Assembly: GCA_964496815.1 (NCBI GenBank)
Contig: CAZCAO010000003.1
Span: forward strand, 1 to 61,778
Length of the DNA: 61,778 bases
Source of the DNA: an uncultured Candidatus Saccharibacteria bacterium
Lineage (GTDB): Bacteria > Patescibacteriota > Saccharimonadia > CAILAD01 > JADZBC01
Reading direction: 5' to 3'
In this document: positions 1 to 57,729 of the stretch, piece by piece
Numbering within the stretch: position 1 is the first letter of the stretch
Layout of the letters: the number at the start of each line of letters is the position of its first letter
Notes under the pieces: generated by a model
Told to the model about the DNA's origin: nothing
The model's database searches: none
What the model saw: only the letters and a program-made list of their open reading frames with translations
Made by a program: the position numbers and the translations under genes

Positions 1-50
1 CAAACGCCCTCCCCGAAAGGAGCGCGTTGGCTCCTCCGGAGAGGGTTGAT

Positions 51-806
51 TCATGGGGTTGAGACTTGCCCATCTTCGCTCAGCGAAGTGAGATTGGTCT
101 CGATGTCTCGCAGCATCTCGAGCTGCTGTCGGTAGTGGTTCAGGCTCTGGATCGAGAACGGGAAGGCACAGATGAGCCCACCGACCACAATCGCCTGACT
201 TTTCTTGCCGTAGAAGGCCCAACCGAGCAGGACTGCCATGGCCTGGAAGAAGAATTTCACCTTGCCGGCCGTTACAGACCCCTCTGGCTCAACCTCGATC
301 CTCCTGGCTACCGTGCCGACTTTCGTGCCCGTCACCAGGACCCGTGCTTCTTGGAGCACGGCGACTGCCAAGACCAGCGAGAGGATCCAGGATCCTTTCT
401 TGTCACGGTGCAGCGACAATGCCAACGCAATCGCGAACAGAGCGAAGAAGAGCTTGTCTGCGATGGGATCGATTGCCTTACCCAGCGTTGTCACGCAGTC
501 AGTGCCGCGTGAAAGCTCTCCGTCAATTCCATCCGTTGAAAGGACGGCAACTGCTGCAACCGCGAGTTTCGCCCGCTCCTTGGTCGACCTCGAGTGGTAG
601 AACCGATACGCCAGCCAGAGCACGCCGACGATGCGGATGCTCGTGACGGTGTTCGGGAGCTGGCGGATATAGATGGGCTTTTTCGTGCCCTCGGGCCACT
701 TGTGGTTAATCCACCGCACAAGGGGGCCCACCAACCAGCGGAAGAACCGCCGAGATGTTTCGGCTCCCCAGTCGGGAAGGCCATGCATCTTTTGCTGAAC
801 GTTCAT
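51..806 (-). CDS. CDP-alcohol phosphatidyltransferase (PgsA/cardiolipin synthase-like), GC-rich
   Basis: PNTVTSIR plus the DGIDGELSR...GKAIDPIAD family motif; several TM segments; AGGAGG SD 4 nt before ATG. Confidence 0.85.
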   Translation of the reverse strand: MNVQQKMHGLPDWGAETSRRFFRWLVGPLVRWINHKWPEGTKKPIYIRQLPNTVTSIRIVGVLWLAYRFYHSRSTKERAKLAVAAVAVLSTDGIDGELSRGTDCVTTLGKAIDPIADKLFFALFAIALALSLHRDKKGSWILSLVLAVAVLQEARVLVTGTKVGTVARRIEVEPEGSVTAGKVKFFFQAMAVLLGWAFYGKKSQAIVVGGLICAFPFSIQSLNHYRQQLEMLRDIETNLTSLSEDGQVSTP

Positions 807-879
807 GGCTCCTCCTAGAGCTCGTCGAATGGGTCAAAGAACGTGCCACTACCTTACAACAGGTTTGGACTATTCTCAA
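807..879 (-). promoter_or_regulatory. sigma70-type promoter (TTGAGA-17-TAAGGT), boxA-like GTTCTTTGA and AGGAGG SD
   Basis: Minus strand: -35 at 874-879, -10 at 851-856, GTTCTTTGA at 834-842, SD at 811-816. Confidence 0.55.
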
Positions 880-949
880 GCTCAAGCAGCACGGGTCTGG
901 CGCCCGGCATGCATAAGCGTTACAATTGTGGAGTAATAAGTAGGCATTC

Positions 950-2218
950 GTGGCATTCAAATTCCCTAAGTTAAAGTCCAGCAAACACAAACAGCCAAAA
1001 GATAAGTACTTGGTGGCGCTTGATATTGGCACGGAGTACGTCAAGGCACTGATTGGCGAAGTTAAGGGCGGTAAGGTAGAGATTATCGGAGTTGGCAGAC
1101 AGCGTCAGCGCCTAACCGATATGGCCAATGGTGCGGTAACCGACATTGCTGGCGTAGTAGAAAACTGCGATGCAGCGCTTAAGCGCGCCGAACAAATGGC
1201 TGGCGTAGTTGGTCGAGATGTGGTGATTGGAATTGCAGGTGAGTTGGTTAAGGGTGGCTCAACGACGATAAGCTATCGACGTGCGCGACCCAACATGCAG
1301 ATTGATGAGACGGAACTCAAAGACATCATAGAGCGTATTCAAAAGGATGCCTTCGAAAAGGTTCGCAAAGAACTCAGCTGGGAAACGGGCTATAAGGAAA
1401 TCGATGTAAAGCTCGTGAATGCAGCAGTGGTGGATGTGTATATCGACGGATACAGAGTGACCAACCCAGTCGGCTTCCAGGGTCGCGATGTCACCATCCA
1501 GATATTCAACGCCTTTGCGCCGATGGTGCATTTAGGCGCGTTACAAACTGTAGCTCGCGATTTGGATCTAAACCTCATTAATATCGCAGCGGAGCCATTT
1601 GCAGTAGCCAAAAGCGTAGGGGCAGATGACTCCACAGAGTTTAGTGCAATATTTATTGACATGGGTGGTGGTACGAGCGACATTGCCGTAGTGAACAATG
1701 GCGGGGTAGAAGGCACCAAGATGTTCGCGATTGCCGGGCGCAGCTTTACCAAACGCATTGCTAGTTCGTTTGGGCTGAGCTTCGAGGAAGCCGAGAAATT
1801 AAAGTTGGAGTATTCGGCAGGTAAATTGAGTGAGAAGAAAACTGACGAGGTAGCTAAAGCCCTCGAAGGCGACATAGACGTATGGCTCAGTGGTGTAGAG
1901 CTTTCATTGCAGGAATTCGATCAACTCGATCATTTGCCAGCGCGGATTATGCTTTGTGGTGGTGCCAGTGCTTTGCCTGAAATCAAGAAGGCATTGAGTT
2001 CGGCTGAGTGGCAGAAGAAGCTACCTTTTGCGCGCAAACCCAAGATTGATTTTGTAAGCCCAAGTGAAGTTAGTCGAGTAGTTGATACTACCGGCAAACT
2101 CGTTAACCAGCAAGACATTACCCCTATGGGCCTGGCCAATTTAGGCCTGGACATTGTCGGGAGTGAGAACTTAAGCGAAAGTATCATACAGCGCTTGAGT
2201 CGAACGCTGAGCTTGTAG
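950..2218 (+). CDS. ftsA: FtsA-family actin-like ATPase
   Basis: LDIGT phosphate-1, AEPFA, DMGGGTSD phosphate-2, LCGGAS adenosine motif, 1C-like insertion, amphipathic C-terminus. Confidence 0.8.
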   Translation: MAFKFPKLKSSKHKQPKDKYLVALDIGTEYVKALIGEVKGGKVEIIGVGRQRQRLTDMANGAVTDIAGVVENCDAALKRAEQMAGVVGRDVVIGIAGELVKGGSTTISYRRARPNMQIDETELKDIIERIQKDAFEKVRKELSWETGYKEIDVKLVNAAVVDVYIDGYRVTNPVGFQGRDVTIQIFNAFAPMVHLGALQTVARDLDLNLINIAAEPFAVAKSVGADDSTEFSAIFIDMGGGTSDIAVVNNGGVEGTKMFAIAGRSFTKRIASSFGLSFEEAEKLKLEYSAGKLSEKKTDEVAKALEGDIDVWLSGVELSLQEFDQLDHLPARIMLCGGASALPEIKKALSSAEWQKKLPFARKPKIDFVSPSEVSRVVDTTGKLVNQQDITPMGLANLGLDIVGSENLSESIIQRLSRTLSL

Positions 2219-2264
2219 CTGAAGGGCATAACTTTTTACATAGTTTTACGTTATAATAATGCTT

Positions 2265-3923
2265 ATGAGTGATGCCGAAATTATTTATCTAGAAGTTGAC
2301 GCCGAGATCACCGAGGCCATCGATAAGCTAAAGAATGCTAAGGGCGAAGCAGTTAAGGTCGTCGTGCCTGCTCGCTCGAGCTTACTGCAGAGTGCTGTGA
2401 ACTTAAAGCTGCTTAAAAAAGCGGCAAAAGACCATAAGAAAGAACTCGCGCTGGTTACGAATGACAAGACGGCGACTTACCTAGCGGCTGGCGTAGGGCT
2501 TGCTGTAGCTGCTAGTCTCAAGGCCGAGCCAAAGGTTCCAGAAGCGATCGAAGAGGCGATCCGTCCAGACATCGTCGAGCAAGAACCAGAGGGCAGTACA
2601 GCTGAAGGTTCGACTAAGAGTAAAAGTAGTGGCTCTGAAAAATCCTCTAGCAGTAAATCTAAAGATGGCACTAAGCCGAAAGATTCTGATGAGCCGGTTG
2701 TAACAAAGCGAGAGATTGGCGATCCTATTGAAGGGGATATTGCTGATAAGGTCACCAAAAAAGGTGCAAAAGTCCCGAATTATAATGACTTTCAGAAGAA
2801 ACTTTGGATTGGGATGGGTGTTTTTGTTGGGATTATCCTGGCGGTAGTCTTAGCGATTACTCTTCCGACTGCTACGTTGACGGTACTCGCTAAAGCCGAC
2901 AAGCTTGGCTTGAATTCGGACTTCATCGTGGACACGTCAGGCGCGCCTACGAATACCGATTCACTTACTTTTGCTGGCACTAAATTGACGTTGCAAAAGG
3001 ATTTGACCCAGAACTTTACTGCTACTGGTAAGAAAGATGTGGGTACTAAGGCGACGGGAGAAGTGACAATCTCTAATGCTTCAAGCTCTGATCCTGTTGG
3101 TATTCCAGCTGGTACAGTGTTATCGAGTCAAGGTAAAAACTTTACCCTTAATGCTGCAACGACAGTGCCAGGTGCAAAACTTCAGGGCGGTAAAATAGTC
3201 CCAGGTAAGGTGAATTCTGCTATTACTGCTTCCACGAATGGAGATGCCTACAATCTCGGAACTACTACATTTGCAGTAGTTGGCTACAATGACAAGGTCA
3301 CTGCTTCTGGTTCTACATCTGGCGGCACATCAAAAACTGTAACCATTGTGTCGCAGTCTGACATCGACGGCGCCAAGCAACAGGCGATAGATACAGCGGC
3401 CAATGCATCAAAAGACGAATTGCTTGCCAAGGCCGATAAAAAGGATGTGGTGTTCGAAGACACCTTCGCGACGACTACTGGCTCGGTTAGCTCCAGCGCC
3501 CCGGTCGATACAGAAGCCGCCAACGGTACGGTTACCGTAAAGGTAACGTACACTGTGGTAACAACGAGTGAAGCGACTGTAAATATACTGCTTGATACAC
3601 TGGCCAAAGACGCCTTACCAGATGGCAATCAGCAGTTGTACCAGAACGGGGCCGACAACGCCAAATATTCATTGCTTCGTGCTGTAAATGATTCACGCTA
3701 TCAGCTCAACGTGAGTGCCGATGCCTACTATGGTAAAAAGATCGATACTGCTCAAATTGCCAAAGCCACTGCCGGTAAGTCCAAAAAGGACGTGACGTCC
3801 ATTGTGCAAAAGGACAACCCAAGTGTTGTGTCTACGCAGGTTAGCAGCAGTCCGTCGCTCATGCCAAATATGCCAGCCCTAGGTAGTCATATCAAAGTTG
3901 TAATCAAGGTGAGTACCGAATAA
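2265..3923 (+). CDS. Membrane-anchored protein with baseplate J/gp47-like external domain
   Basis: N-terminal soluble domain, S/K-rich linker, one TM helix (WIGMGVFVGIILAVVL), then ATGEVTISN..IPAGTVL..F pattern; start set 7 nt after TATAAT. Confidence 0.6.
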   Translation: MSDAEIIYLEVDAEITEAIDKLKNAKGEAVKVVVPARSSLLQSAVNLKLLKKAAKDHKKELALVTNDKTATYLAAGVGLAVAASLKAEPKVPEAIEEAIRPDIVEQEPEGSTAEGSTKSKSSGSEKSSSSKSKDGTKPKDSDEPVVTKREIGDPIEGDIADKVTKKGAKVPNYNDFQKKLWIGMGVFVGIILAVVLAITLPTATLTVLAKADKLGLNSDFIVDTSGAPTNTDSLTFAGTKLTLQKDLTQNFTATGKKDVGTKATGEVTISNASSSDPVGIPAGTVLSSQGKNFTLNAATTVPGAKLQGGKIVPGKVNSAITASTNGDAYNLGTTTFAVVGYNDKVTASGSTSGGTSKTVTIVSQSDIDGAKQQAIDTAANASKDELLAKADKKDVVFEDTFATTTGSVSSSAPVDTEAANGTVTVKVTYTVVTTSEATVNILLDTLAKDALPDGNQQLYQNGADNAKYSLLRAVNDSRYQLNVSADAYYGKKIDTAQIAKATAGKSKKDVTSIVQKDNPSVVSTQVSSSPSLMPNMPALGSHIKVVIKVSTE

Positions 3924-3925
3924 GC

Positions 3926-4342
3926 GTGGACCGCAGGTCTCAAGTAATCCTTGCCTTTGATTACGGCAGCAAGCGAATTGGCGTATCGCTCTATAATCCA
4001 GAAAAGGGTGCTCCTGTGGCTCTAACCACGATCACGGCTGGTCCGCAGATGTGGAGCGAAGTACAACACCTTACATTGCAGCATCGGGCCGGTATGTTTG
4101 TAGTTGGTTGGCCACGCGGACTCGATGGTCAGCATACCCAGCAAACATACGTGGCGGAGCAATTCGCAGAAGATTTAAAGAAGCGGTATGATAAGGAAGT
4201 TGTGCTGCAAGATGAAGTCCTCACGAGCGAGGAAGCTCGTAAGCGACTCGATCCAAAGCTCCCAATTCGTAAGCAGCGGGAGCAGATTGATGCAATAGCT
4301 GCACAAATAATTCTGGAGGACTATCTACGTGAAGCAAAGTAA
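3926..4342 (+). CDS. ruvX: YqgF/RuvX RNase H-fold nuclease (pre-16S rRNA processing)
   Basis: LAFDYGSKRIGVS, VVGWP, QDEVLTS, IDAIAAQIILEDYL. Confidence 0.9.
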   Translation: MDRRSQVILAFDYGSKRIGVSLYNPEKGAPVALTTITAGPQMWSEVQHLTLQHRAGMFVVGWPRGLDGQHTQQTYVAEQFAEDLKKRYDKEVVLQDEVLTSEEARKRLDPKLPIRKQREQIDAIAAQIILEDYLREAK

Positions 4343-5336
4343 ACAGATTATGCTAGGCATAGCAGGAGTGCTGGCGGTTGGTTCGGCATTATTAGTTAGC
4401 TTATGGCTATTTAGCGTGTATGTGCCACAAAACAGTCAAACTACAAAGTCGGTGATCGTGCAGGTTGCCCCCGGCGATTCCGTTGCGCAAATCGGGCAGA
4501 AGCTACGCCAGGATGATTTGGTCTCATCGGCCTTTATTTTTACCCTCTACGCACGGTTTAGCGGTAAGGGTGACAGGCTCATACCTGGCACATACGCGCT
4601 CAAGGGTAGTATGAACATTCCTCAGATCGTGGATTACTTTGCGAGCGGTCGAGTAGCGGCCCGCAAGGTCGTCGTCCCAGAGGGCTATACCGTGGCAAAG
4701 ATTAGTAAATTATGGAATCAAACTGGCTTTGGCGCATCTGATGAATTTGTTCGGGCTGCTAGCAAACAATACGATTACGACTTTTTGCCCCAGCCGAGCA
4801 AAGCTGTGAAGTATCAGGTCGAAGGATATCTATTCCCCGCGACGTATCAGGTGAGTGTGAATGCAACTGCCGAGAGCTTCATTCGCCAAATGCTCGACGC
4901 ATTCGAAGCGCAAGCAGCCCCGGTTATTAAGGCAAATAACACCAGTGGGCTTAAGAGTATGTCAGAAGTTGTGACGCTGGCGTCTGTGGTCGAGCTGGAA
5001 GCTAATGATGCAGTTAACCGAGCGAAAGTCGCCCAGGTGTTCTTGAATAGGTTAGCCAAAGGCATACCGCTACAGAGTGATGTGACGGTTAATTACGCCA
5101 CAGGCAAGAGCAATACCGCCGCGTCAGACATCGTGACGAAGTCTCCATATAATACCTATGTTGTCGCTGCTTTGCCGCCAGGACCGATTTGTAGTCCTGG
5201 AATTGAGGCTATTGAGGCCGTTCTAAAGCCCACCAAGACCGATGATTTGTTCTTTCTGGCAGGTCGCGACGGTCAGGTGTATTACGCCAAAACCCTCCAG
5301 GAGCACAATAAAAACATCGAACGCTACTTAAAGTAG
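4329..5336 (+). CDS. mltG: Endolytic transglycosylase MltG
   Basis: N-terminal TM; EGYLFPATY, LASVVELE, NRL..GIPLQSD, SPYNTY...LPPGPICSPG. Confidence 0.92.
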   Translation: MKQSKQIMLGIAGVLAVGSALLVSLWLFSVYVPQNSQTTKSVIVQVAPGDSVAQIGQKLRQDDLVSSAFIFTLYARFSGKGDRLIPGTYALKGSMNIPQIVDYFASGRVAARKVVVPEGYTVAKISKLWNQTGFGASDEFVRAASKQYDYDFLPQPSKAVKYQVEGYLFPATYQVSVNATAESFIRQMLDAFEAQAAPVIKANNTSGLKSMSEVVTLASVVELEANDAVNRAKVAQVFLNRLAKGIPLQSDVTVNYATGKSNTAASDIVTKSPYNTYVVAALPPGPICSPGIEAIEAVLKPTKTDDLFFLAGRDGQVYYAKTLQEHNKNIERYLK

Positions 5337-5628
5337 TGCCTTTTAGCCTATATATAAGATAAAACGTCGTCTTGACGACCCATTTGAAGCGTGCTAGACT
5401 TACTGAGTAACTTTGCAAAGCATAAGCGTATAGACACTTATGGGGAGCAAACGAGCCTGCACCAGTTTGTCAGATTAGGAGTTTTAACGAAACAAAGGTC
5501 GAACCCTCCGGTCCTGGAATAAACCAGGAGAAGGACAAACCGCAGTATTAACGCAGCACCTTCAGACATTCCACATGCGTTAGAGGAGATGCTTTATTAG
5601 TAGAAAAGCACTTGGCCTCACCTTAAGA

Positions 5629-6798
5629 GTGCGTCACGAATCGTTCGTTGGCGTGGGACGAAGCCATACTTTTTCGAAAATAAAAACTCAGCACACTGCG
5701 GCTCAATTGAACTCAGTTGTGCAAAATAAAACTCGAATTTCTCAGGCTCAAACTGGCCTAACCGAAAAATTACAATTAGACGCCCTTAAAAAGAAGGGAA
5801 GTGAACACAAAGCTGGTTTTGCGCGATTTGGTGTACATGCTGCTATTTTGGCAACTGTAGCTAGTTTCGTCGTGGCTGGTAAATATACCCCTACATTTGC
5901 TCAGGTGGGTGGTAGTGGCGCGGCTGTATCGGCGATTGATCAGACTTCAGAACTAACTACCGGTGCTGTAGTAGCGACGGCTACCAATAGCGTTATTAAG
6001 GCCGACGTGGCGGAGATTGCAAATACGGCGAGCTCTCAGGTGTATTTAGCGACTGCCGGTGATGGCTTCCTAGCGAAAAAGCAGCCCATGCAAGCCGCAG
6101 TGCAGACTCGCGAAGTAAGCAGCTATACCGTGAAGAACGGCGATACGCTTTGGAGTATCTCATCGCAGTTCAACATTACGACCGATACGATTAAGTGGGC
6201 GAATGACCTGGATGAGAACAGCGTGCTTCGACCAGGCACTAAGCTGACGATTCTACCCGTTAACGGTGTTCTCTACACTGCCAAAGGCGGGGAGAGTCTC
6301 TCGGCCCTTGCTACACGCTACCAGGCCAATGCTACTTTGATTGATAGTTTTAATGACTTGCAGGGTGCTGCCCCGAGTGAAGGTATGAAGCTGATTATTC
6401 CAGACGGTGTTATGCCTCAAGTTGCGGCAGCAGGTGCTCCATCGACACCAGCAGTTCGTATAGCTGCTGCTACGCCAGCGCCAGCTTTCTCATACCGAGG
6501 TAATGGTAATGGCTATACACCAGGCCAGTGTACATGGTATGTGGCATCTCGGCGTGCTGTTCCCGGCAACTGGGGTAATGCTATTAGTTGGTACTATAAT
6601 GCGCAAGCGAGTGGTTACGCAGTTGGTGCTGTGCCACGAGCAGGTGCCATCGGCTGGGAGCGCAGTAACCACGTAGTGTACGTTGAGTCTGTGAATCCTG
6701 ATGGTTCAGTTAACATCTCCGAGATGAACTTTAACTACCAAGCCGGTGTATTGCATCGCCGTACGACATCTCCAAGTCAGTTCCTCTATATCTACTAG
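5629..6798 (+). CDS. LysM-repeat + CHAP peptidoglycan hydrolase
   Basis: Two LysM repeats (YTVKNGDTLWSISSQF) and a CHAP domain (GQCTWYV, WGNA, HVVYVE, ISEMN); exact start uncertain. Confidence 0.88.
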   Translation: MRHESFVGVGRSHTFSKIKTQHTAAQLNSVVQNKTRISQAQTGLTEKLQLDALKKKGSEHKAGFARFGVHAAILATVASFVVAGKYTPTFAQVGGSGAAVSAIDQTSELTTGAVVATATNSVIKADVAEIANTASSQVYLATAGDGFLAKKQPMQAAVQTREVSSYTVKNGDTLWSISSQFNITTDTIKWANDLDENSVLRPGTKLTILPVNGVLYTAKGGESLSALATRYQANATLIDSFNDLQGAAPSEGMKLIIPDGVMPQVAAAGAPSTPAVRIAAATPAPAFSYRGNGNGYTPGQCTWYVASRRAVPGNWGNAISWYYNAQASGYAVGAVPRAGAIGWERSNHVVYVESVNPDGSVNISEMNFNYQAGVLHRRTTSPSQFLYIY

Positions 6799-6817
6799 AA
6801 CATTCTAAGGTTCTCGC

Positions 6818-6851
6818 AATAAACACCCCGAATCTTCCTGGGGTGTTTATT
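6818..6851 (+). terminator. Intrinsic terminator, probably bidirectional
   Basis: AATAAACACCCC / GGGGTGTTTATT 12-bp perfect stem. Confidence 0.8.
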
Positions 6852-6870
6852 GTTAGGGTACAATAGATAA

Positions 6871-11145: not shown

Positions 11146-11221
<76 letters not shown>

Positions 11222-18662: not shown

Positions 18663-19103
18663 GTGCCGCAGCAAATAGTGTTTACAGTGGTCCAGGATGA
18701 CCTCGGTCATATCGTGATCGATGTGGCTACGCCGTTCAAGTGGATCACGAAAAGAGCCATCCAGGATTCGTTGCGCCTTCAGGGTCCTGACTTCGCGCTT
18801 AGCGCGCAGGAACGGTCCCTGATCGATGACCTCGATGTGTGTCCGAGAGCAAAGCTCTTGGCAGAACGATTCGAGCAAGAAGAATGGGGTTGCGGCTGGA
18901 TAGAGGTCTTCTGGGATGGCCTAGAGATCTTTGTCGCTTCTGGCACGCCTGTTTGCATCGAGAAGCTCTGTGATCAGCTCTGGGACGCTATTCAGGATAT
19001 CGCCGCTGATACCTGGTCTGGCAAACCGCCGGCTCGCAAAGATGCCTTTGGGCTATTCCCGCGTTCTCTGGGTAAGTCAGGCGTCGCATCTAGTCACTTC
19101 TAG
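18663..19103 (+). CDS. Hypothetical protein, GC-rich solitary ORF
   Basis: GGAGGTG SD 6 nt before GTG 18663; own promoter TTGCGG-18-TAGACT; 3' hairpin 19102-19130. Confidence 0.7.
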   Translation: MPQQIVFTVVQDDLGHIVIDVATPFKWITKRAIQDSLRLQGPDFALSAQERSLIDDLDVCPRAKLLAERFEQEEWGCGWIEVFWDGLEIFVASGTPVCIEKLCDQLWDAIQDIAADTWSGKPPARKDAFGLFPRSLGKSGVASSHF

Positions 19104-24610: not shown

Positions 24611-25738
24611 ATGATGAATCCAGTAAAACCTGAAGCAGGTGGCGTTAAACCACCCGAACAGAACGCAGAGCAGGCTAACAACGACCAAGGTAAGCAGCTT
24701 CAAGCTGATTTGTTGGCTATTGCTGCTTCGCAGGCAGAAGTACCAACAGATGAGTCAACCGAGGTAGCGGCTGCTCCTACTATGGGACGAGCCGAGGCGA
24801 AGGGCGCAGCAATTGGCAGAAAAATCGATAACCTTGCCGAACGTGGTAGCGATGCCGTTGCATCTGGTAAAGAAAAGCTCAGTGGTGCAGCTGATACTTT
24901 GGCCGAAAAAGCCTACGATGCGGCTGGTGCAGTTGATCGCGGCATCAAAAGCATTAAAGAACGAGCTAAAGGCGTACGTGAGCGGGTCGAGAAGGGCGCT
25001 GATCTAGCAACTGAAAAGCGCAAAGACGCTGTGGCTGCTGCCAAAGAAAAGTCTAAGAAGGCCATGCTCGTCACGATTGGTTTGAGCATCGCAGGAGCCG
25101 AGGCAGTCGCGAACATTCCTGAAAACGTGAAGAAGCAAGGCAAAAAGATCGGCGAGACCCTCAATCGTTGGGCTTCAAAAGCCATGGAGAGAATTTCCGG
25201 CCGTATTAAGAAGACCAAAGAGAGTGTTTCCAACGTCATTAGTGGTGCTGCCGAGAAAGTCGGCGATGTAGTCGAGTCGGGGCTGGAAGCAGTAGATAAG
25301 AAATTAAAGGACTGGGAAGCTAGGCTCCAAGAGGCTCGTGAGCGCGCCGAGGCTGCTGCCGAAGAGGCACGTAGAAAAGAGCTCGCAAAGGCTTACGTCG
25401 AGGCTCGAGTTGAGCAGGCAGCGGATATTGCCCGCAAGGCAGCTGAGAAAGAAACCAACGGCAAAACCAGCGAGGAGCTCGAAGGCTTACTTAAGGACAT
25501 GGGTGAAGAAGCGGCAATCGAGGACGCCGATGTGGCTGCCGACAAGGCTGCGGCGAGCGTTGCTATGCCAGAGGCACCAGCTGAAGTCAGTTCGGCGAGT
25601 GAGGTACCAGTAGAGAGCACGCTTGATAGCGGCGAAGCAGCTGCGCCTGTTGCCGAGTCTACACCTGAGCCCGACGCCGAAGTATCTGCGACACCAACAC
25701 CTGCGCCGAGCGCAGCTCCACAGCCAATAGCCGCATAA
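24611..25738 (+). CDS. Ala/Lys/Glu-rich helical low-complexity protein (LEA/apolipoprotein-like)
   Basis: Composition; own promoter TTGACC-17-TATACT; Pro/Ala/Glu-rich tail. Confidence 0.75.
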   Translation: MMNPVKPEAGGVKPPEQNAEQANNDQGKQLQADLLAIAASQAEVPTDESTEVAAAPTMGRAEAKGAAIGRKIDNLAERGSDAVASGKEKLSGAADTLAEKAYDAAGAVDRGIKSIKERAKGVRERVEKGADLATEKRKDAVAAAKEKSKKAMLVTIGLSIAGAEAVANIPENVKKQGKKIGETLNRWASKAMERISGRIKKTKESVSNVISGAAEKVGDVVESGLEAVDKKLKDWEARLQEARERAEAAAEEARRKELAKAYVEARVEQAADIARKAAEKETNGKTSEELEGLLKDMGEEAAIEDADVAADKAAASVAMPEAPAEVSSASEVPVESTLDSGEAAAPVAESTPEPDAEVSATPTPAPSAAPQPIAA

Positions 25739-25748
25739 TGAGGAAACA

Positions 25749-26129
25749 ATGATGCAAGAAACGATTGAAGAGATTATTCTAAAAGAGCTTGGTGCCGAGG
25801 GGATGGCCGAGGAGGCCAAACAGCAAATGCTCGATGACATTTCTGAGAGTGTTCAAAACTACTTCATTGCTTTTAGTTATCAGAAGCTTAGTGAGGCCGA
25901 TAAGCAAGAGCTAGAGAGGCTAATCGACGCTGGTGATGAGGCTGCTCAAGACGCCTTCCTAGCAGAAAAAATCCCAAACAGGTCTGAGGTTATCCAGCAG
26001 GCTGTCGACCAGACGGTGGCTGATATCCGCGAGTCCCAGGCAGAGCTCGATGCGGAGCTAGCCGATATGAATAATTCCGTCGCGCAGCCGCCACTTACTC
26101 CGCCGACTCCACCCGCCCCGGCAGTCTAG
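25749..26129 (+). CDS. Small acidic helical protein (resembles DUF5663-type CPR proteins)
   Basis: ELG.EGM.EE.KQQML..I...V...F...LSEAD..EL..L pattern recalled from CPR; Pro-rich tail. Confidence 0.6.
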   Translation: MMQETIEEIILKELGAEGMAEEAKQQMLDDISESVQNYFIAFSYQKLSEADKQELERLIDAGDEAAQDAFLAEKIPNRSEVIQQAVDQTVADIRESQAELDAELADMNNSVAQPPLTPPTPPAPAV

Positions 26130-27963: not shown

Positions 27964-28038
27964 TGGGACGTGGCCAAGTGGTAAGGCGCTTGATTCTGGC
28001 TCAAGAGATCGAAGGTTCGACCCCTTCCGTCCCAGCCA
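27964..28038 (+). tRNA. tRNA-Gln(CTG)
   Basis: T1-A72 acceptor TGGGACG/CGTCCCA, anticodon arm CTTGA-TTCTGGC-TCAAG, encoded CCA. Confidence 0.96.
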
Positions 28039-30529: not shown

Positions 30530-30612
30530 GCTTGCCAGATAAACAAATCTGAGTATCATAACAAGTAAGACGCATCAGCGTTTGTACCTACTTTCACCCC
30601 AAAGGGGGCACT

Positions 30613-31350
30613 ATGAAGAATCATGAAAAGCGCCCCCTGGATAATACAGTAGTGATTATCGCGGCGGGCACGTTTGTAGCTAACTGGTATGCTCAGTTCG
30701 TTTATGGCTCGCTCAAGCGGGCCGTCGAAGAGCGCGGCTATCCGGTTCTCATTCTGGCGATTCCTCACTTGGGCCTTGGCCCGATGGAAGGAGCGTTGGA
30801 TACGATGCACGCGACAATCCTGCAGACGTTTCCGACACAGCAGTTCGTGCTGATCGGTCACAGTCAGGGCGGTAGTCACATCATGGGCCTCAAGCGCCGG
30901 CTGGGTAGTCGAGTCATCAAGACTCTGCAGCTGTCTGCGCCGAACCACGGCACCCGCTTGGCAAACTTGGGCGGATGGCTCAAGGCCTTTCCAGCGATCG
31001 GCAACATGGCAGCTCATTCGCCAGTACTGCGCGAGCTGCGGTCGCTGGAGGAGATTGTCGAAGAGGTTGAGGCGATGGAGATCGTTAGCGTCATGAGCCT
31101 GTTCGACCAGTTGGTGTTGCCGTTCTTTGCCTCGATCCTCAAAGGAGCACAGAACATCGTGATCGCGCCAAAGGTGCTGCACCCACTGCTCATGAAGTTG
31201 GGTTTTCGGCGAAGCAATGGAGTCGAGCTGGTTGACGGTATCGCCGACCACCTTTCCATCATCTCGCACGATGTCGTTCTTCGCCTGATCGACCAGATGT
31301 TCGATGAACTTGAGGCAACATGCATTCAGGGGCAGCGCAGCCCCCGGTAG
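30613..31350 (+). CDS. Alpha/beta hydrolase (lipase/esterase), GC-rich solitary ORF
   Basis: LIGHSQGG nucleophile elbow, SAPNHGT, DQLV acid, DHLSI His. Confidence 0.85.
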   Translation: MKNHEKRPLDNTVVIIAAGTFVANWYAQFVYGSLKRAVEERGYPVLILAIPHLGLGPMEGALDTMHATILQTFPTQQFVLIGHSQGGSHIMGLKRRLGSRVIKTLQLSAPNHGTRLANLGGWLKAFPAIGNMAAHSPVLRELRSLEEIVEEVEAMEIVSVMSLFDQLVLPFFASILKGAQNIVIAPKVLHPLLMKLGFRRSNGVELVDGIADHLSIISHDVVLRLIDQMFDELEATCIQGQRSPR

Positions 31351-31432
31351 GAGCTCCTAGCCTAACCTGCCGGGGGCTCTTATCGTTATGGGCGGTCCAG
31401 GTGTATAATAAGAGTGTTAACGAGGACAGACT

Positions 31433-40074: not shown

Positions 40075-40147
40075 TGCTTCGTAAATGAGGGAGGCCCCTG
40101 CCGGAGATCGTCGTTGATCTCGAGCAGGGGCCTTGGTTGGTTGGGTT

Positions 40148-40813
40148 CTATCGCAGGGCGTAGTGCCGTGCTTCGATCATCTCCCAGAGAGCAACGATGC
40201 GGTCCGAGACCTGGTTGACGGTCCAAGTGCTGGTGTCGATCTGGACGGCATCTGGGTGCTTGATCATCGGAGACGTCTTGCGCGAGGCGTCCTTGTTGTT
40301 GCGACTGACGAGGTCCTCGACGCTACAGCCCCTGCGAGAGGCTGCGATGACGGGGTCGCACGTGAGCCAGATCTTCAGTTCGGAGTCGGGAATCTCCCAG
40401 GCCCCCGCTCGACCCTCGATGATGCTGAGAGGTCGATCCGCGATAAAGCGCCTTGCAAGGCTTTCCACCACCTTGCGTACTTCTGGAATTTCTGCAACGT
40501 AGGGAACGAAGCGGTCGACCTCGGGCGCGTGGAGAACACCGGAGCAGCTCGCCCCGTTGACACTGCTCACGCTGCCGTCGGCGAACTCAAGCTCGTATCC
40601 CCGGACGGTGCGGCCCGCCAGCCCAGGCTCTACAATCAAGTTCGCTCCTCCCCAGCCTTCGTTCATGAGCTGAAGCGCGAAAGCGCGGTAGATCTCGCCG
40701 GAGTTGAGATAGTCGCAGCCAAGCTTCCTGCCGGTTGCTTCGCCATTCGAGCTTGTGCCCGTTCCTCCTCCTCCATCGATGACGATGACTCGCTGTTTTA
40801 CTCGAGAAGCCAT
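40148..40813 (-). CDS. Cytidylate kinase-like protein with degenerate P-loop, GC-rich solitary ORF
   Basis: IVIDGGGGTGTSS, NSGEIYRA, IIEGR, KIWLT, SPM..HPDA..IDTS; start from SD AAGGGAG and promoter TTGTCT-17-TAGGAT. Confidence 0.8.
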   Translation of the reverse strand: MASRVKQRVIVIDGGGGTGTSSNGEATGRKLGCDYLNSGEIYRAFALQLMNEGWGGANLIVEPGLAGRTVRGYELEFADGSVSSVNGASCSGVLHAPEVDRFVPYVAEIPEVRKVVESLARRFIADRPLSIIEGRAGAWEIPDSELKIWLTCDPVIAASRRGCSVEDLVSRNNKDASRKTSPMIKHPDAVQIDTSTWTVNQVSDRIVALWEMIEARHYALR

Positions 40814-40983
40814 GACTTCTCCCTTCTTGATCGAGAGATGTAAGGGAACCAGATATATCCTACAATCATAATTGAGACCAGACAAGCATGTGCAGTTTGT
40901 GGCCATGTAGTCTTGATTAGAGTGGCCATTTCTGATAGAATAACAACCAATTGTTTAGTATTAGTAATTAGGAACACAACAAT

Positions 40984-49851: not shown

Positions 49852-49935
49852 CCATAGGCAAAGCACTAAAAACAGCTGAGCTTTTTTTGCTCTGCCACCA
49901 ATGCCCGCTGCTCGCCACTTTGCTATGATAGTCTC

Positions 49936-50024
49936 ATAGGGTGAGTTTAGGTTTAGTCGCAAGACGCGCAGGAGCTGGAGGCATACAAATACACCGACAT
50001 CGTATTAAAGCGAGTCGGTTTTTT
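49936..50024 (+). ncRNA. Candidate small RNA of unknown family
   Basis: Extended -10 TGcTATGAT (49921-49929), GTC-GCAA-GAC GNRA hairpin, terminator ACCGAC..GTCGGT plus T-run; no convincing ORF. Confidence 0.35.
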
Positions 50025-50065
50025 GTAATAGGACGGTTTTGGTGTTGATAGCTTATAATGATGAT

Positions 50066-52054: not shown

Positions 52055-53166
52055 GCTTGCAAGGTCCTGAACAGTCCGGAGTAAGGGTTGAGAAAACCAA
52101 ACTAGCAATGGCTAAGGACACAGTACAAGAACTTAATAAAATTGCTTCAGAAACGCAACGCCGCGAACAAGCATGGAGCGAGTATGCTGGCTATGGTTCA
52201 GAATATCAGCGTCGCAATGATGAGCGTGTTCGCATCGGTAGGGCTAAAATTGATCACTTCGGTGGCGATGCCTTGACGATGATCGCTAGTATTAACACAG
52301 AAAAACTTGATCCTGCAACTGGCCAAAGAGCAGAGAATCAAAGAGCCAGAGGGCTAGTAGAGGGTAAGGCAGCCGACCTACATGATTACAATCCCGAATC
52401 ACAAAATCATGCAGATATTGAGGCGGCCTATCTTGATTACCTTGAGGCAACTCCACCTGATCAGCGTTTAGTTGTTTTTGAAGGTGATGAGCGTAGTGAA
52501 GCTGATACTCCCGACAGGGACGCTGCAATTGATGCTGCTAGTGAGACGGGCATGATGCAGTTTTTTGCTCGACGCGATGGCGTACCAGCAGTGAGTGGTG
52601 AACCCAGTGATGCCGAGATTGCTCAATACACCGAAGCCCGTGGCGTGTCTCCGGAGGAACTTACCCTTGTGCTCATGCTCCGTAATTTAACTCATGACAT
52701 AAGCAAGCCTTTGCCGGAAGATATATCCCTTCAGGTTTACGGTGAAGCAGCAGTTAACGGATCGCCTGGCTTCCAGCATATTCCAGATACAGACAAGGAT
52801 CGAATGATAGAACAGAACCCTGAAATTATTGAAGCGCTTAAGGACCAAGCACGATCATTAGTCATGAATATGAACGAACATTTGGCAGAACTGGGTCTTC
52901 CGCAATTTGCCATTCGCGAGGATGGCACAATTGGTTTTAGTTCCGTAGAGGATCGTGCTGCCTTGGCTAAAGCATGGGATCCACGATCAGATGGCCGACT
53001 AGCCGAGATCCATACCATTATCACTGAGGCGCGCGATCGTCACATCTTCGACCTTATTACTCAGGCAATTACTGACGGCAAGAAGCCCTTCGTAGTATAC
53101 GGAGGGTCGCACGTGATGAGCCTAGAGCCAGCCTTTGAAGCATATTTTGCAAATCAGTCGCCCTAG
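52051..53166 (+). CDS. Hypothetical protein with TraB/GumN/Tiki-like signature
   Basis: [18 protein letters not shown]....[13 protein letters not shown]. Confidence 0.6.
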
Positions 53167-53171
53167 TACAC

Positions 53172-53200
53172 TTGAAAAACACCGTGTTTATGTGTATAGT
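53172..53200 (+). promoter_or_regulatory. uvrA promoter (TTGAAA-17-TATAGT) with palindrome AAACAC-C-GTGTTT
   Basis: Palindrome at 53177-53189 inside the spacer. Confidence 0.6.
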
Positions 53201-53235
53201 TAAGCGTTGATTTAACAAGTGAGGATAGGGCATAT

Positions 53236-56052
53236 ATGGCTGATAAAATCGTCATTAAGGGTGCTCGCGAGCACAACCTCAAAAACATAGACCTCGAAAT
53301 ACCCCGCGATAAACTGGTGGTGATTACGGGTCTCTCCGGCTCCGGAAAATCCTCACTTGCCTTTGATACTATCTATGCTGAAGGTCAGCGCCGGTATGTC
53401 GAGAGCTTGAGTGCCTATGCCAGGCAGTTCCTTGGCTTGATGGAAAAGCCCGACGTTGATCAAATCGAGGGCTTGAGCCCAGCTATTTCGATCGACCAGA
53501 AGTCAAGTTCGCGTAATCCACGTTCGACCGTAGCCACGGTAACGGAAATATACGACTACCTACGTTTGCTTTTCGCGCGCATTGGTGTGCCGCATGATCC
53601 CACTACCGGCGAGGTCTTAACCAAGCAAACTCCAGCCCAGATTGTTGATTCGATTCGTCAGTACCCCAAAGGAACCAAGATCGTTATTTTAGCTCCAATC
53701 GTGAAGGACAAAAAGGGCGAGCATCGGCATTTGCTTAGCGAAATCCAAAAAGCTGGCTATTCGCGGGTACGCCTAAATGGCACTCTCATGCCGATTGACG
53801 AAGTTCCAGAGCTTGACCGCCAGAAGAAGCACACCATTGAGGTGGCAGTGGATCGTATGACGCTCGACCCCGAAGAGCCACAGCAAAGATTGGTGGAATC
53901 AGTTGAGCAGGCGCTGCACTTGGGTGAAGGTGTTATTACTGTGCAGGATCATGACACGGGCGAAGAGCGAGTCTTTAGCGAACACTACACTACTGCTGAC
54001 TCGGGCTTTTCATTACCCGAAATCGAGCCAAGGCTGTTTTCATTTAACTCCCCACACGGAGCTTGTCCGAAGTGTACAGGGCTCGGCTCATTACTTATTG
54101 TTGACCCCGATATGGTGATTCCAAATCGCCGCTTGAGTGTTGTGGAGGGCGCTATTCGGCCGTGGAGCCGTACGACTTCGCGCATGACGTGGTATACCAA
54201 GCTGCTCGAGGCTGTGGCAGAGAAGCACAAGTTCAAACTCGACGTTCCGGTCGAAAAACTCAGTCCAAAGGAGATAGAAATTCTACTCTACGGCACGGGT
54301 GATGAGGAGATTGGTGTACGTGGTCCGGGCGGCCGAACCTATAAGACGACGTTCGAAGGTATTATCCCGAACTTGGAGCGACGCTATCGTGAGAGCGACA
54401 GTGACTTTGTCAAAAAAGAAATTGAGCGCTACATGACTACCCAGGAGTGTCAGGAATGTCATGGCAAGCGACTCAAGCCAGAGGTTTTAGCTATCACGGT
54501 GAACGATAAATCGATTGCCGACCTAACTGACATGGCAGTCGAGGATGCGCTTAAAACGTTTTCTGGTCTAGAGCTCAATGCCCAGGAAAAGCAAATCGCT
54601 GCACAGATTCTCAAAGAGATTAGTGAGCGGCTCAAGTTCCTTAACGATGTAGGCCTGAACTACCTTACATTGAATAGAAGTGCAAATACCTTGGCTGGAG
54701 GTGAGGCACAACGTATTCGTTTGGCTACGCAGATTGGTTCGAGCCTAATGGGTGTGCTCTACATTCTCGACGAGCCATCGATTGGACTGCATCAGCGCGA
54801 CAATGACCGTTTGATCAGTACGCTGCAGCGTTTGCGTGACCTGGGCAATACCGTGATTGTGGTAGAACACGACGAAGACACTATTCGCGCCAGTGACTTT
54901 GTAGTCGACATTGGTCCACTCGCTGGTGAGCATGGCGGCGAGGTGATAGCTATTGGTACTCCTGATGAAGTCGCCAAGAGTAAAGATTCTTTGACCGGTC
55001 AGTATTTGAGTGGGACTAAGAAGATCGAGGTGCCCAAGCAGCGCCGCAAGCCGACCGACAAAAAGCTACGCATCGTGGGCGCAACCGAAAACAACCTCAA
55101 GGACGTATCGGTTGATATCCCGCTTGGCATTATGACGGTTGTAACAGGCGTGTCCGGTTCTGGTAAGTCATCACTGATTAATGACATCTTGGCGCGCAAG
55201 CTAAGCCAGGAATACCACCGTGCGCAGGAGCCAGCTGGCAAGCACCAAGAGATTCTAGGCACAGAGCATTTGGATAAAGTTATCGACATCAACCAGTCGC
55301 CAATTGGCCGTACGCCGCGCTCTAATCCTGCCACCTACACAGGAGCCTTTACCGACATCCGTGATTTGTTCGCCATGGTGCCGGAAGCCAAGATTCGTGG
55401 CTATAGCTCTGGTCGATTTAGCTTTAATGTAAAAGGTGGCCGCTGTGAGACCTGTAAAGGTGACGGTATAATCAAGATCGAAATGCACTTTTTGCCTGAC
55501 GTGTATGTGACATGCGAGACGTGCCATGGCAAGCGCTATAATCGTGAAGCACTCGAGATTCTGTATAAGGGCAAAACGATTGCCGATGTCCTAGAGATGA
55601 CGGTAGATGACGCTTGTGACTTCTTTGGTAACATCCCAGCCGTATACCGTAAGCTTGAAACGCTGCGCAGCGTTGGCTTGGGCTATATTCGATTAGGGCA
55701 ATCTGCCACCACGCTCTCAGGCGGGGAGGCGCAGCGCATTAAGCTGGCAAGTGAGCTGTCCAAGCGGGCTACTGGCCGAACCCTCTACATTTTGGACGAG
55801 CCAACCACTGGATTGCACTTTGAAGACGTCAAGAAGTTGCTCGAAGTACTCAACGCGCTTGTAACCATGGGCAATTCGATGCTGATCATCGAACACAACC
55901 TAGACGTTGTGAAGTGTGCCGATTGGTTGATCGATCTAGGCCCCGAGGGCGGAAGCGGCGGCGGCATGGTGATTGCCGAGGGCACACCAGAGCAGGTCGC
56001 CAAGGTGGATAAATCTCACACCGGCCAATACTTACAGAAGCTGCTTAAATAG
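53236..56052 (+). CDS. uvrA: Excinuclease ABC subunit A
   Basis: Two ABC cassettes ([25 protein letters not shown] twice), zinc fingers CPKC/CQEC, CETC twice. Confidence 0.98.
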
Positions 56053-56072
56053 AACTTGCGTACTTAAAACAG

Positions 56073-56100
56073 AAACACCACTCGTTCTGAGTGGTGTTTT
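56073..56100 (+). terminator. Bidirectional terminator after uvrA
   Basis: AAACACCACTC-GTTCT-GAGTGGTGTTT. Confidence 0.85.
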
Positions 56101-56106
56101 CGTAAT

Positions 56107-56188
56107 CCCGACCTAAACCTAGACGGTGTCTAAACTTGGGTCGGGGCCGGAGGTACGAAGCGTCGTTGCTTCTTGGTGTACCTCCGGC
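56107..56188 (-). other. Two abutting long hairpins 3' of the GC-rich ORF
   Basis: 56146-56188 (11+5 bp, loop AACGAC on minus) and 56107-56145 (about 17 bp, three G-U pairs on minus). Confidence 0.7.
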
Positions 56189-56195
56189 GAGCCGA

Positions 56196-56966
56196 CTACT
56201 TCTTCTTGCCGTGCTTCGGCGGCTCCTGCCCCTTGGGCTGCTGCATCCGGGCGCGGATGGCCCGGTCGCGAGCCGACTTCTCGGCCTTGCGCGGGTCCTT
56301 GCCCTTGCCCCGACGGCCACCGTCGCTCCCGGAGGAGCTGCGGTGGATGTTCGTCAGGTGCTTGGCCACACCCCGGAGCTGTCCGATGTGGACGCTCTTG
56401 CCCTTGCCGGCGAGGATCTTGTCGATCGCGCGCTGGCTGTCGGGGCGGAGGTTGCTCCAGCCGACGATGACACCCATGAAGTACGAGTCCTCGATCAGGG
56501 GCTTGATCTCGGCGATCAGCTGCTCCTTCTCGGTCTCCTCGGCCTCCTTGACGTCGAGCTCGGCGATGACCCGCTCGAGGACCGCGTTGCGGGCCTCGGT
56601 GCGGGTGCGGCTGGCCTCCTTCAGCTCGGCCACGAGTGCCTTGCGGATGTCCTCTCGGACGAAGGCCTTCCACAGCGCCGTCTGCACGGTGCCGTTCAGC
56701 CACAGCCGGTTCAGGCGCCCCAGGGCGCTCTGAGCCGACTTCTCCTGCTTCAGCTGCTCGCGCAGCTGGAAGAGGTTCTTCGTGGCCTGCGGGTGGGTCC
56801 CGAACAGGTGCTTGGCCGCCTCGGCCGTCTCCGACCAGGCCAGGGCCTCGTCGACGGTCTGGAACCGGACGCCACCGGCGATGGCGATGATGATCGCCTC
56901 CTTGGCGGTGTCGGTCGCGGTGATCGCGAGGGTGGACTGGGACTGGATGTCTTCGGTGGTGGCCAT
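56196..56966 (-). CDS. Hypothetical helical protein with basic C-tail, very GC-rich
   Basis: 256 aa from MATTEDIQ; CAGGAGAG SD; G/C-ending codons; hand-counted lines 65-75% GC. Confidence 0.8.
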   Translation of the reverse strand: MATTEDIQSQSTLAITATDTAKEAIIIAIAGGVRFQTVDEALAWSETAEAAKHLFGTHPQATKNLFQLREQLKQEKSAQSALGRLNRLWLNGTVQTALWKAFVREDIRKALVAELKEASRTRTEARNAVLERVIAELDVKEAEETEKEQLIAEIKPLIEDSYFMGVIVGWSNLRPDSQRAIDKILAGKGKSVHIGQLRGVAKHLTNIHRSSSGSDGGRRGKGKDPRKAEKSARDRAIRARMQQPKGQEPPKHGKKK

Positions 56967-57007
56967 GCGGCTCTCCTGTGAGTCTTTGGATTGGATTTCC
57001 GCTGGCA

Positions 57008-57076
57008 GACTCTTGGCCAGTACGGATAGCCGCAAAGCAAGGGGGCTGCTTCACAGGTATCCGCAGACCAAGAGTC
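57008..57076 (-). promoter_or_regulatory. 69-nt, 30-bp hairpin in the 5' UTR
   Basis: 11+8+11 bp with CCCCC loop; G-U pairs work only on the minus strand. Confidence 0.7.
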
Positions 57077-57149
57077 AATAGTCACTAACAAATAAGTAGT
57101 CGGTTGTAAATGTGCACTCAAGGTTGTAACAACGTTGAGCGTGATAAGT

Positions 57150-57178
57150 ATGATAGCACAGATAGAATAAAATGTCAA
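57150..57178 (-). promoter_or_regulatory. Near-consensus promoter TTGACA-17-TATCAT with extended TG
   Basis: Plus-strand TGTCAA 57173-57178 and ATGATA 57150-57155. Confidence 0.75.
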
Positions 57179-57203
57179 TACTCTATGACAAAAATATATT
57201 AAC

Positions 57204-57246
57204 AAAAGGGAAGGGGTCGCAGCAACCTGATGGTTACTGCGACCCC
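57204..57246 (-). terminator. Terminator after the 57247 ORF
   Basis: GGGGTCGCAGTAACC-ATCA-GGTTGCTGCGACCCC followed by TTCCCTTTT (minus strand). Confidence 0.8.
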
Positions 57247-57582
57247 TTAGGGCCGCTCGAGTGGCTTGGTGTTGTGTTCGGCGGCAATCTGACGCAGGAT
57301 GCGCTCGCGCTCATGTCCGCCGTTGTCTTCGACGCTCCCCAGCGATCGTTGTACGAGCAGCGAGAACAGCTCTTCATTCAACTTGGGGCCGAAGGTGTGA
57401 ACCCCCTGGTCGTAGAGGGCTGCGATGTGAGCCTCTGCATCAAGGAGCTCCCATGGCCGTTCGTCACTTGGTTCTGCACCTGCGTGCATCTCGGTAGCTT
57501 CAAGCATCTCGCGCTGGGCTACCAGGATGTCGATCAGCGTGAGTGCCAACTGCGGCACCAGGCTGTCGTGCTGGTCGCGCAA
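57247..57582 (-). CDS. Hypothetical protein, GC-rich; may start at ATC 57624
   Basis: Open frame between promoter TTGCAT-17-TATAAT and a terminator directly after the stop. Confidence 0.65.
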   Translation of the reverse strand: MRDQHDSLVPQLALTLIDILVAQREMLEATEMHAGAEPSDERPWELLDAEAHIAALYDQGVHTFGPKLNEELFSLLVQRSLGSVEDNGGHERERILRQIAAEHNTKPLERP

Positions 57583-57729
57583 GGCATGTTGCAGTTGGGC
57601 TGTAAGGGACTTTTGGGTAAGGATTTTGGCCTCCAGGGCTCGGACTGACGGGACAAATAGATTATAGACCTCGGCAAATAGTTATGCAATGCATATTAGA
57701 ATCTAGCAATAGTTGTTATAATGTTACGG

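Follow-up and report, generated by a model that had tools for sequence, protein, structure and literature searches.

The window analyzed here, the whole of contig C3 (61,778 nucleotides) in a six-contig, 381-kb assembly (G000; completeness 52%) of an uncultured Candidatus Saccharibacteria bacterium, contains six open reading frames (ORFs) that belong to a second, compositionally distinct class of genes, marked by a high GC content at third codon positions (GC3). The six loci, numbered as slots 1 to 6 (Table 1), adjoin core genes (an ftsA-like gene, rnc and smc, a cupin gene, xth, rpmG and dsbA, uvrA and uvrC) and have counterparts in the same gaps of other genomes of the genus, where conserved flanking frames enclose coding sequences (CDSs) that diverge far more than the frames do. 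These loci are probably fixed slots with conserved frames, between which ORF alleles are exchanged among species and in which elevated GC3 is maintained. All six reading frames are open where an initial annotation of this DNA had placed them.

Against a GC content of 0.49 on each of the six contigs of G000 and a median GC3 of 0.495 (380 crude ORF calls, genome-wide), the ORFs of slots 1 to 6 have GC contents of 0.585, 0.549, 0.568, 0.607, 0.680, and 0.607 and GC3 values of 0.74, 0.605, 0.70, 0.72, 0.957, and 0.71 (robust z-scores of about 4.3, 2.0, 3.7, 4.0, 8.2, and 3.9). The initial annotation had called all six GC-rich; five are clear outliers and the slot 2 ORF is only marginal. The excess is located at third codon positions, GC1 and GC2 being raised only slightly; C- and G-ending codons are both used (A/T-ending codons amount to 5% in slot 5), and the amino acids glycine, alanine, arginine, and proline (GARP) are slightly enriched in the class. 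The second gene class that the initial annotation had proposed is confirmed by genome-wide GC3: 29 ORFs reach at least 0.65, and GC-rich segments make up about 11% of the assembly. Compared with other ORFs, members of this class more often run against the prevailing local strand (52% vs. 22%, p = 0.001), have opposite-strand genes on both sides (38% vs. 11%), carry a strong 3′ hairpin (41% vs. 11% of ordinary ORFs), and fall within 1.5 kb of a contig end (24% vs. 4%, p = 0.0006), the last of which fits the expectation for loci that vary within populations. A class architecture of promoter, Shine-Dalgarno (SD) sequence, ORF, and GC-rich hairpin without a U-tract is supported, the promoters being predicted.

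The relatedness of other genomes (G001 and higher numbers) to G000 was gauged by UvrA identity, which is 98% for G002 and G003, 93% for G001, G005, and G006, 84% for G007, and 76–82% for other families. All six slots are syntenic within the genus, except that the slot 5 gene is absent from the uvrA-uvrC gap in G006 and G007. Its description of each ORF as standing alone between host genes does not hold: slots 5 and 6 occupy a single uvrA-uvrC gap, and rpmG (ribosomal protein L33; 40984-41154, + strand), which has a classical T-tract terminator and was missed by the initial annotation because its ORF list excluded genes so short, lies beside slot 4, between it and the dsbA-like gene. An assembly chimera or contamination as the source of the units was considered and rejected, since core genes lie on both sides of them and they recur in several independent assemblies.

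Replacement of alleles within conserved frames is seen at slots 4 and 1. The cytidylate-kinase-like (cmk-like) protein of slot 4 occurs as two types that are 30–36% identical, type A in G000, G001, G004, and G006 and type B in G002, G003, and G005, a distribution that conflicts with the UvrA-based relationships: the type A protein of G000 is 84–86% identical to those of G001, G004, and G006 but 33–35% identical to those encoded at the same locus in G002 and G003, and type B proteins are 51–54% identical to proteins of G007 and G022. The DNA of the locus is a mosaic. Over about 40130-40880, which spans the ORF, SD sequence, and leader, G000 is 78–98% identical to G001 and G006 and 23–57% identical to G003; sliding identity flips near 40880 from G001-like (95–98%) to G003-like (77–92%), and the other breakpoint lies near 40130. 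The leader and SD sequence go with the allele, whereas the hairpin and the rpmG side of G000 are G003-like, such that the hairpin tracks the slot and not the gene; both of its stems have compensatory changes across G000, G001, G006, and G003. As seen in these alignments, cmk types A and B represent a displacement in place. The comparison of G002 with G003 points the same way: flanks of slot 4 are 98–100% identical, and the CDSs are 60–80% (slot 4) and 33–68% (slot 1) identical, a pattern that could not arise by divergence in place and shows allele replacement.

At slot 1, syntenic homologs within the genus share 36–45% protein identity. The block of promoter, leader, and SD sequence (about 800-966) is 80–100% identical across five genomes, in all of which the SD sequence and first codons are invariant; the 5′ frame is 89–100% identical to that of G003, and its predicted promoter stands back to back with the −10 box of the ftsA-like gene. 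On the other side, the hairpin is 80–100% identical in G003, G006, G001, and G002, next to a CDS with 30–60% DNA identity. Slot 5 combines a gene of one kind with a hairpin of another: the protein is 86% identical to those of G002 and G003 and 35–36% identical to that of G001, yet the first downstream hairpin of G000 matches that of G001 almost exactly, even with the genes at 36% identity and the G000 gene G003-like. The hairpin of G003 differs by compensatory changes, and the second downstream hairpin (CCCGACC...GGTCGGG) is almost invariant in G000, G003, and G001. The predicted leader of slot 5 includes a 70-nt hairpin, which in G000, G003, and G001 folds at −41 to −49 kcal/mol and is conserved far above the CDS; it has no match in Rfam and is a candidate cis-regulatory RNA. 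Homologs of the slot 5 protein in three other families lie at other loci, at least the copy in G017 inside a GC-rich island.

The remaining slots show other degrees of divergence. The slot 6 protein is 72% identical to that of G003, and ORFs in the same place of G001, G006, and G007 are only 18–19% identical to it; its hairpin is kept with compensatory changes in G000, G003, G001, and G006. The slot 2 protein is 69% identical to its counterpart in G003, 29% in G006, and 17% in G001, the last figure amounting to no detectable similarity. At slot 3 both gene and hairpin are retained in all five genomes compared, and identities track the species ranking by UvrA (82% for G002 and G003, 78% for G001, 49–55% for G005 and G006, and 43–47% for other families). 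Ratios of nonsynonymous to synonymous substitution (dN/dS) of 0.13 for slot 4, 0.35 for slot 5, and 0.16 for slot 6 indicate that these are real proteins under purifying selection. In searches of Pfam, slots 2, 5, and 6 match no family. The AlphaFold2 model of the slot 5 protein is confident and all-helical, with a predicted local distance difference test score (pLDDT) of 83 and a basic C-terminal helix, and resembles no fold in PDB or BFVD.

GC-richness is a persistent feature of these loci. Counterparts of slots 1, 3, 4, and 5, the four tested, are all GC peaks (0.55–0.69, vs. 0.42–0.53 in their flanks), and GC-rich homologs of slots 1, 4, and 5 extend into other genera and families of the order. 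GC3 is 0.63–0.74 in five slot 1 orthologs and 0.56–0.72 in five slot 3 orthologs; at slot 5 it is 0.96 in G000, 0.95 in G003, and 0.96 in G001, at protein identities of 86 and 36%. In uvrC, the neighbor of slot 5, synonymous sites are saturated between G000 and G003 (proportion of synonymous differences, pS, 0.80), with GC3 of 0.51 and 0.52. Since GC3 is held across saturating divergence, it is not a foreign relic and points to an equilibrium under an active force; the comparisons indicate that GC-richness is an actively maintained property of these gene families.

Translational selection for high expression was rejected as the cause, since GC3 is 0.37–0.54 in tuf, in fusA, and in the ribosomal-protein cluster. 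Among the forces that might hold GC3 up, we tentatively rank selection on transcripts or on their decoding first; GC-biased repair linked to exchange comes second as a possible but doubtful cause, and continual re-import from an unsampled GC-rich pool comes third and is rather improbable. Silent-site selection fits the family-specific and stable levels of GC3 (0.96 in slot 5, about 0.70 in slots 1, 3, and 4) and the fact that tRNAs specific to G-ending codons have been retained. Those kept in the half-genome of G000 (contigs C1, C2, and C3) are Glu-CUC, Gln-CUG (27964-28038 in the window), Leu-CAA, and a partial Leu-CAG; the set, to which Ala-GGC adds, is remarkably rich for a genome of about 0.8 Mb and may be relevant to how the GC-rich class is decoded. 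It is unlikely that GC-biased gene conversion at recombination hot spots produced the GC-richness as an unselected side effect. Three hallmarks of biased conversion are present (recombination, GC enrichment concentrated at third positions, and rapidly evolving proteins), and the slight GARP enrichment would also suit such a process, but the effect would be far above any known for bacteria, the flanking core genes that bear the crossovers have ordinary GC3 (0.51 in uvrC), heteroduplex is impossible between allele classes that are 35% identical, and GC3 levels are stable and particular to each family.

The frames themselves are built of hairpins, leaders, and predicted promoters. In agreement with the initial annotation, a GC-rich hairpin begins shortly past the stop codon of each of the six ORFs (0–17 nt), and five of the six lack a U-tract: a T-rich tail follows the hairpin of slot 6 alone, the other five differing in this from canonical intrinsic terminators, and the host genes rpmG and uvrA have ordinary T-tract terminators. 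SD-like sequences, claimed for every ORF, were found 5–9 nt upstream of the start in five, with none at the TTG start of slot 6. Own promoters, likewise claimed for all six, are predicted at slots 3, 4, 5, and 6 (at least 9 of 12 consensus positions), and slots 1 and 2 have weak matches only. The statement that many host genes look leaderless was not established, SD-like motifs being present at 37–53% of other ORFs by a crude count.

Sequence signals common to the hairpins proved elusive. Comparison of the six by blastn-short (E ≤ 1) returned self-matches only, with no common sequence. The apical motif CAACG(A)C, present in the hairpins of slots 1, 4, and 5, was considered as a defining signal and rejected, as it is not kept in orthologous hairpins; its genome-wide enrichment is weak, with six hairpins where permuted loops average 1.7 and one other permutation does equally well, and in G003 it sits on the opposite strand. 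A covariance model (R1; calibration rough) was built from a family of 40–86-nt hairpin repeats on other contigs (for example C4:7184-7241 and C1:142851-142906), which numbers 4–14 copies per genome in the genus and 0–1 in most other genera. Its two top matches in the window, on the correct strand, are the hairpins of slot 3 (18.6 bits, E 0.0016) and slot 4 (E 0.0023), with a weak, marginal match at slot 1; strong members all lie outside the window, and slots 3 and 4 are weak relatives (about 18 bits). The shared covariance model that the initial annotation had envisaged thus reaches slots 3 and 4, weakly, and does not unite the six hairpins. From these patterns there appears to be a loose family resemblance (GCCCC...GGGGC stems, CCAAG and TCT..AT flanks) and no common site. 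The U-less hairpins are probably slot-resident terminators or 3′ stabilizers of mRNA that incidentally supply homology for exchange.

As we picture it, autonomous single-gene units would occupy fixed gaps between core genes of the genus, each with a frame on one side formed by a promoter and a leader, sometimes long and structured, and a frame on the other side formed by a slot-specific GC-rich hairpin, usually without a U-tract; a fast-evolving GC-rich ORF would lie between the two. Related species would trade ORF alleles and occasionally ORFs without detectable similarity. Most simply, and probably, DNA from relatives would be taken up via ComEC and then recombined by RecA at homologous sequence, the crossovers falling within the conserved frames; such an exchange could displace a housekeeping-type enzyme in place, as with cmk types A and B. 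Each of the near-complete genomes of the genus encodes both ComEC and RecA, and experiments have demonstrated that Saccharibacteria can be naturally competent (PMC10187176; PMC10633639). The HUH Y1 transposase (PF01797) is absent from G000 to G007 and present in 3 of 41 genomes of the order; the tyrosine recombinase (PF00589) occurs once per genome, as a protein of about 306 aa conserved order-wide, with none in the window, and is, as expected from these features, probably an Xer-type enzyme. The claim that the window contains no integrase or transposase holds for both families in a six-frame search of the whole assembly. Because hairpin and promoter stay with the slot and no dedicated recombinase of the two families tested was found, ordinary homologous recombination would be sufficient. 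Of the initial annotation's suggestion of self-contained cassettes moved by a recombination system, the exchange of coding parts stands, and a dedicated system finds no support (no HUH enzyme and a single Xer-like recombinase).

Several points weigh against exchange between fixed frames as a general account. The decisive evidence for allele replacement comes only from slots 1 and 4; slot 3 looks essentially vertical, only faster than its neighbors, and the counterparts at slots 2 and 6 could equally be unrelated replacements or extremely diverged forms of one gene. That crossovers fall in the frames is deduced from the mosaics of a few genomes. No allele donor was found; among 5.8 billion proteins, the closest relative of slot 1 is 45% identical. 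Homologous recombination alone does not explain the GC-richness of the class, and GC-biased repair of heteroduplex would be expected on the homologous flanks and not on alleles that are 35% identical.

Repeated capture from high-GC donors (actinobacterial hosts or their phages and plasmids), with GC-richness as an unworn donor signature, had been put forward in the initial annotation and is improbable. GC3 of up to 0.96 and U-less GC hairpins do resemble Actinomycetota, the alleles are very diverse and donors unsampled, and one class member outside the window (G000:C5:23411-24496, GC3 0.76) carries LGFP repeats, cell-wall-binding repeats typical of Actinomycetota. However, the same families occupy the same slots throughout the genus, the members tested in other families are GC-rich too, and GC3 of 0.95–0.96 persists at 36% protein identity beside saturated synonymous sites. 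Proteins of slots 1, 4, and 5 have no relatives outside Saccharibacteria among 5.8 billion proteins, 185,579 species genomes, and phage and plasmid records, and the cmk-like protein has no close solved relative (best structure match E about 1e-15). That the slot 5 protein came from a phage or plasmid was rejected in particular: tblastn gave no match in phage or plasmid records, and the fold searches of PDB and BFVD none.

Likewise improbable is a joint alternative in which these are arms-race or interface genes written in a "second dialect" whose near-saturated use of G/C-ending codons is functional in itself, or in which the frames are recombination sites of a cassette system that only looks recombinase-less. 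On the former reading the genes would sit in conserved frames for expression and be reshuffled between species all the time, and the G/C-ending codons could possibly serve decoding, under certain conditions, by the retained tRNAs for G-ending codons, protection of transcripts from nucleases, or activity of genes or transcripts in a high-GC host.

A dedicated cassette system, in which a site-specific or single-strand-specific enzyme would recognize the 3′ hairpins, and perhaps the leaders, as recombination sites in the manner of attC or repetitive extragenic palindromic (REP) elements, is very improbable. Breakpoints do lie repeatedly between stop codon and hairpin, hairpin conservation is far above neutral expectation, and the slot 3 and 4 hairpins are the best window matches to the genus-specific R1 family. 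Set against this are the recombinase inventory given above (no HUH Y1 transposase in any of seven genomes of the genus and one order-wide tyrosine recombinase per genome), the lack of detectable common sequence among the six hairpins (CAACG(A)C being neither kept nor clearly enriched), hairpins that stay with the slot, a second breakpoint that lies in the promoter, and the absence of arrays. That the slots hold purely vertical resident genes evolving very fast in place, with no exchange, is scarcely credible: synteny is universal in the genus and the UvrA-like ranking of identities allows such a reading for slot 3, but for slots 1 and 4 it is refuted by the G001-type cmk allele of G000 in G003-type flanks and by G002 and G003 (flanks 98–100% identical, coding DNA of slots 1 and 4 33–80%), and presence of the slot 5 gene varies from genome to genome.

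Exchange between fixed frames has partial parallels in known systems. In the minimal mobile elements (MMEs) of Neisseria, reportedly treated by Saunders and Snyder in 2002 and by Snyder et al. in 2007, as in the slots, the whole-gene cassette between two conserved flanks differs from genome to genome, and the units are dispersed, with one or two genes each. MME cassettes enter by homologous recombination after natural transformation and carry no recombinase; for the slots the same route is probable, with mosaic breakpoints inside conserved frames, RecA and ComEC present, and no HUH transposase or additional tyrosine recombinase. Measured against the MME definition in the form quoted in PMC3082526, different genes between the same flanks are found at slots 4, 5, 2, and 6. 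In contrast to MMEs, a predicted promoter or leader belonging to the unit and a structured 3′ hairpin form part of the conserved frame, most cassettes are divergent alleles of a single family, with housekeeping-type enzymes among them, and the class keeps GC-rich codon usage against the genome average. Slot exchange resembles known MME-type exchange and needs no new machinery; the puzzling part is a GC-rich codon usage that is maintained locally.

Xenologous gene displacement in situ, a concept said to come from Omelchenko et al. in 2003, is matched by the replacement of cmk type B by type A (33% identical) at one conserved locus, but here the cmk case is one instance of a recurrent slot-based pattern in many genes. 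The amelioration model of horizontally acquired islets, reportedly due to Lawrence and Ochman, shares the sharp compositional islands with atypical codon usage; in the slots, however, composition does not decay (GC3 0.95–0.96 over saturating divergence) and no donor lineage was found. Like phage morons, the slots consist of an autonomous unit of promoter (predicted here), ORF, and hairpin, often antisense to its neighbors and unlike the surrounding composition; unlike morons, they have no prophage context (flanks are uvrA/uvrC, rnc/smc, xth/rpmG, and the ftsA-like gene), are old and syntenic, and, in the case of the slot 5 protein, have no phage matches by sequence or by fold. Integron cassettes are also exchangeable single-gene units ending in an imperfect hairpin, but slot units have their own predicted promoters, are dispersed without an array, and occur without IntI, attI, or Pc; moreover, slot hairpins are slot-specific and remain when the ORF changes, whereas attC moves with its ORF. 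For hairpin elements of the REP/REP-associated tyrosine transposase (RAYT) or IS200/IS605 type, a co-occurring HUH Y1 transposase was lacking.

Compositional islands are usually read as recent transfer, a reading that fails clearly here. Genes with GC3 of 0.7–0.96 in a roughly 0.8-Mb epibiont genome of 49% GC imply a strong local force, whether silent-site selection or biased repair. The core chromosome of an ultra-small, naturally competent parasite would have fixed "sockets" whose coding sequences are swapped between species, and the swapped cmk-like and PgsA-like enzymes point to targets of conflict with hosts, phages, or competitors. Slot genes offer concrete targets for genetic work in those Saccharibacteria strains that can now be transformed. 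In practical terms, slot loci coincide with contig breaks in metagenomes, and predictors of horizontal gene transfer would mislabel them.

TABLE 1. Positions of slot features in the window.
Feature	Position	Strand	Remarks
Slot 1 3′ frame: two-tier GC hairpin (about 8-47) right after the stop	1..50	-	Fold −29.5 kcal/mol; contig end
Slot 1 ORF: CDP-alcohol phosphatidyltransferase (PgsA-like), hypervariable	51..806	-	Pfam PF01066, E 4.7e-19
Slot 1 5′ frame: SD AGGAGG, leader, weak predicted promoter TTGAGA-17-TAAGGT (about 879-851)	807..930	-	
Slot 2 ORF in the rnc-smc gap, no known domain, GC3 0.605	18663..19103	+	Marginal member
Slot 2 hairpin, overlaps the stop codon	19101..19131	+	Fold
Slot 3 promoter-like site TTGCCA-16-TATCAT	30532..30559	+	10/12 matches; 53 nt upstream of ATG
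Slot 3 ORF: alpha/beta-hydrolase-like protein, GC3 0.70	30613..31350	+	Weak Pfam Abhydrolase matches
Slot 3 hairpin AGCCCCCGG...CCGGGGGCT, overlaps the stop	31333..31392	+	Conserved in five genomes
Slot 4 hairpin, common to the convergent xth gene	40092..40133	-	−33 kcal/mol
Slot 4 ORF: diverged cytidylate-kinase-like protein, allele type A, GC3 0.72	40148..40813	-	Pfam PF02224, E 1e-28
Slot 4 leader and predicted promoter	40814..40894	-	Promoter-like site 9/12; breakpoint about 40880
Two conserved hairpins downstream of slot 5 ORF (56147-56187 and about 56107-56146)	56107..56187	-	
Slot 5 ORF: 256-aa all-helical protein, basic C-terminal tail, GC3 0.957	56196..56966	-	Predicted model
Slot 5 predicted promoter TTGACA-17-TATCAT (57178-57150) and leader of about 180 nt	56967..57178	-	11/12 match
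Slot 6 hairpin, 17-bp stem, T-rich tail (only one of six)	57211..57248	-	
Slot 6 ORF, no known domain, GC3 0.71, TTG start doubtful	57247..57582	-	No SD; G003 ortholog starts further in

Further observations concern the slots and the GC-rich class. The terminator of uvrA (56073-56099) adjoins the hairpins downstream of slot 5. The type A cmk-like gene of G006 (C1:130189-130851) has an in-frame TAG despite 84% identity to G000, and may be a pseudogene or reflect an assembly error. Other members of the class outside the window include a ThyX-type thymidylate synthase and a thymidine-kinase-like ORF. A GC-rich stretch at 25259-25825, the Ala/Glu-rich tail of a 375-aa low-complexity protein, was rejected as a class member, as its GC content is driven by amino-acid composition (GC1 0.75, GC3 0.51). 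The assemblies of G000 and G001 (start of contig C5) both break directly past the slot 1 hairpin, which fits loci that vary within the sampled populations, and metagenome assemblies appear to be fragmented at GC-rich loci.

Genomes of relatives measure 0.6–1.2 Mb. Genes of the window lie predominantly on the + strand, and GC skew is positive over its full length. A tRNA Ala-GGC gene is located at 11146-11221. At the end of the window, a tRNA-Leu(CAG) gene that resembles tRNA-Leu(UAG) on contig C2 is cut by the contig end; its upstream region and first bases are duplicated in a direct repeat (61585-61635 and 61686-61735), and this region (61585-61778) may be the scar of an insertion at a tRNA.

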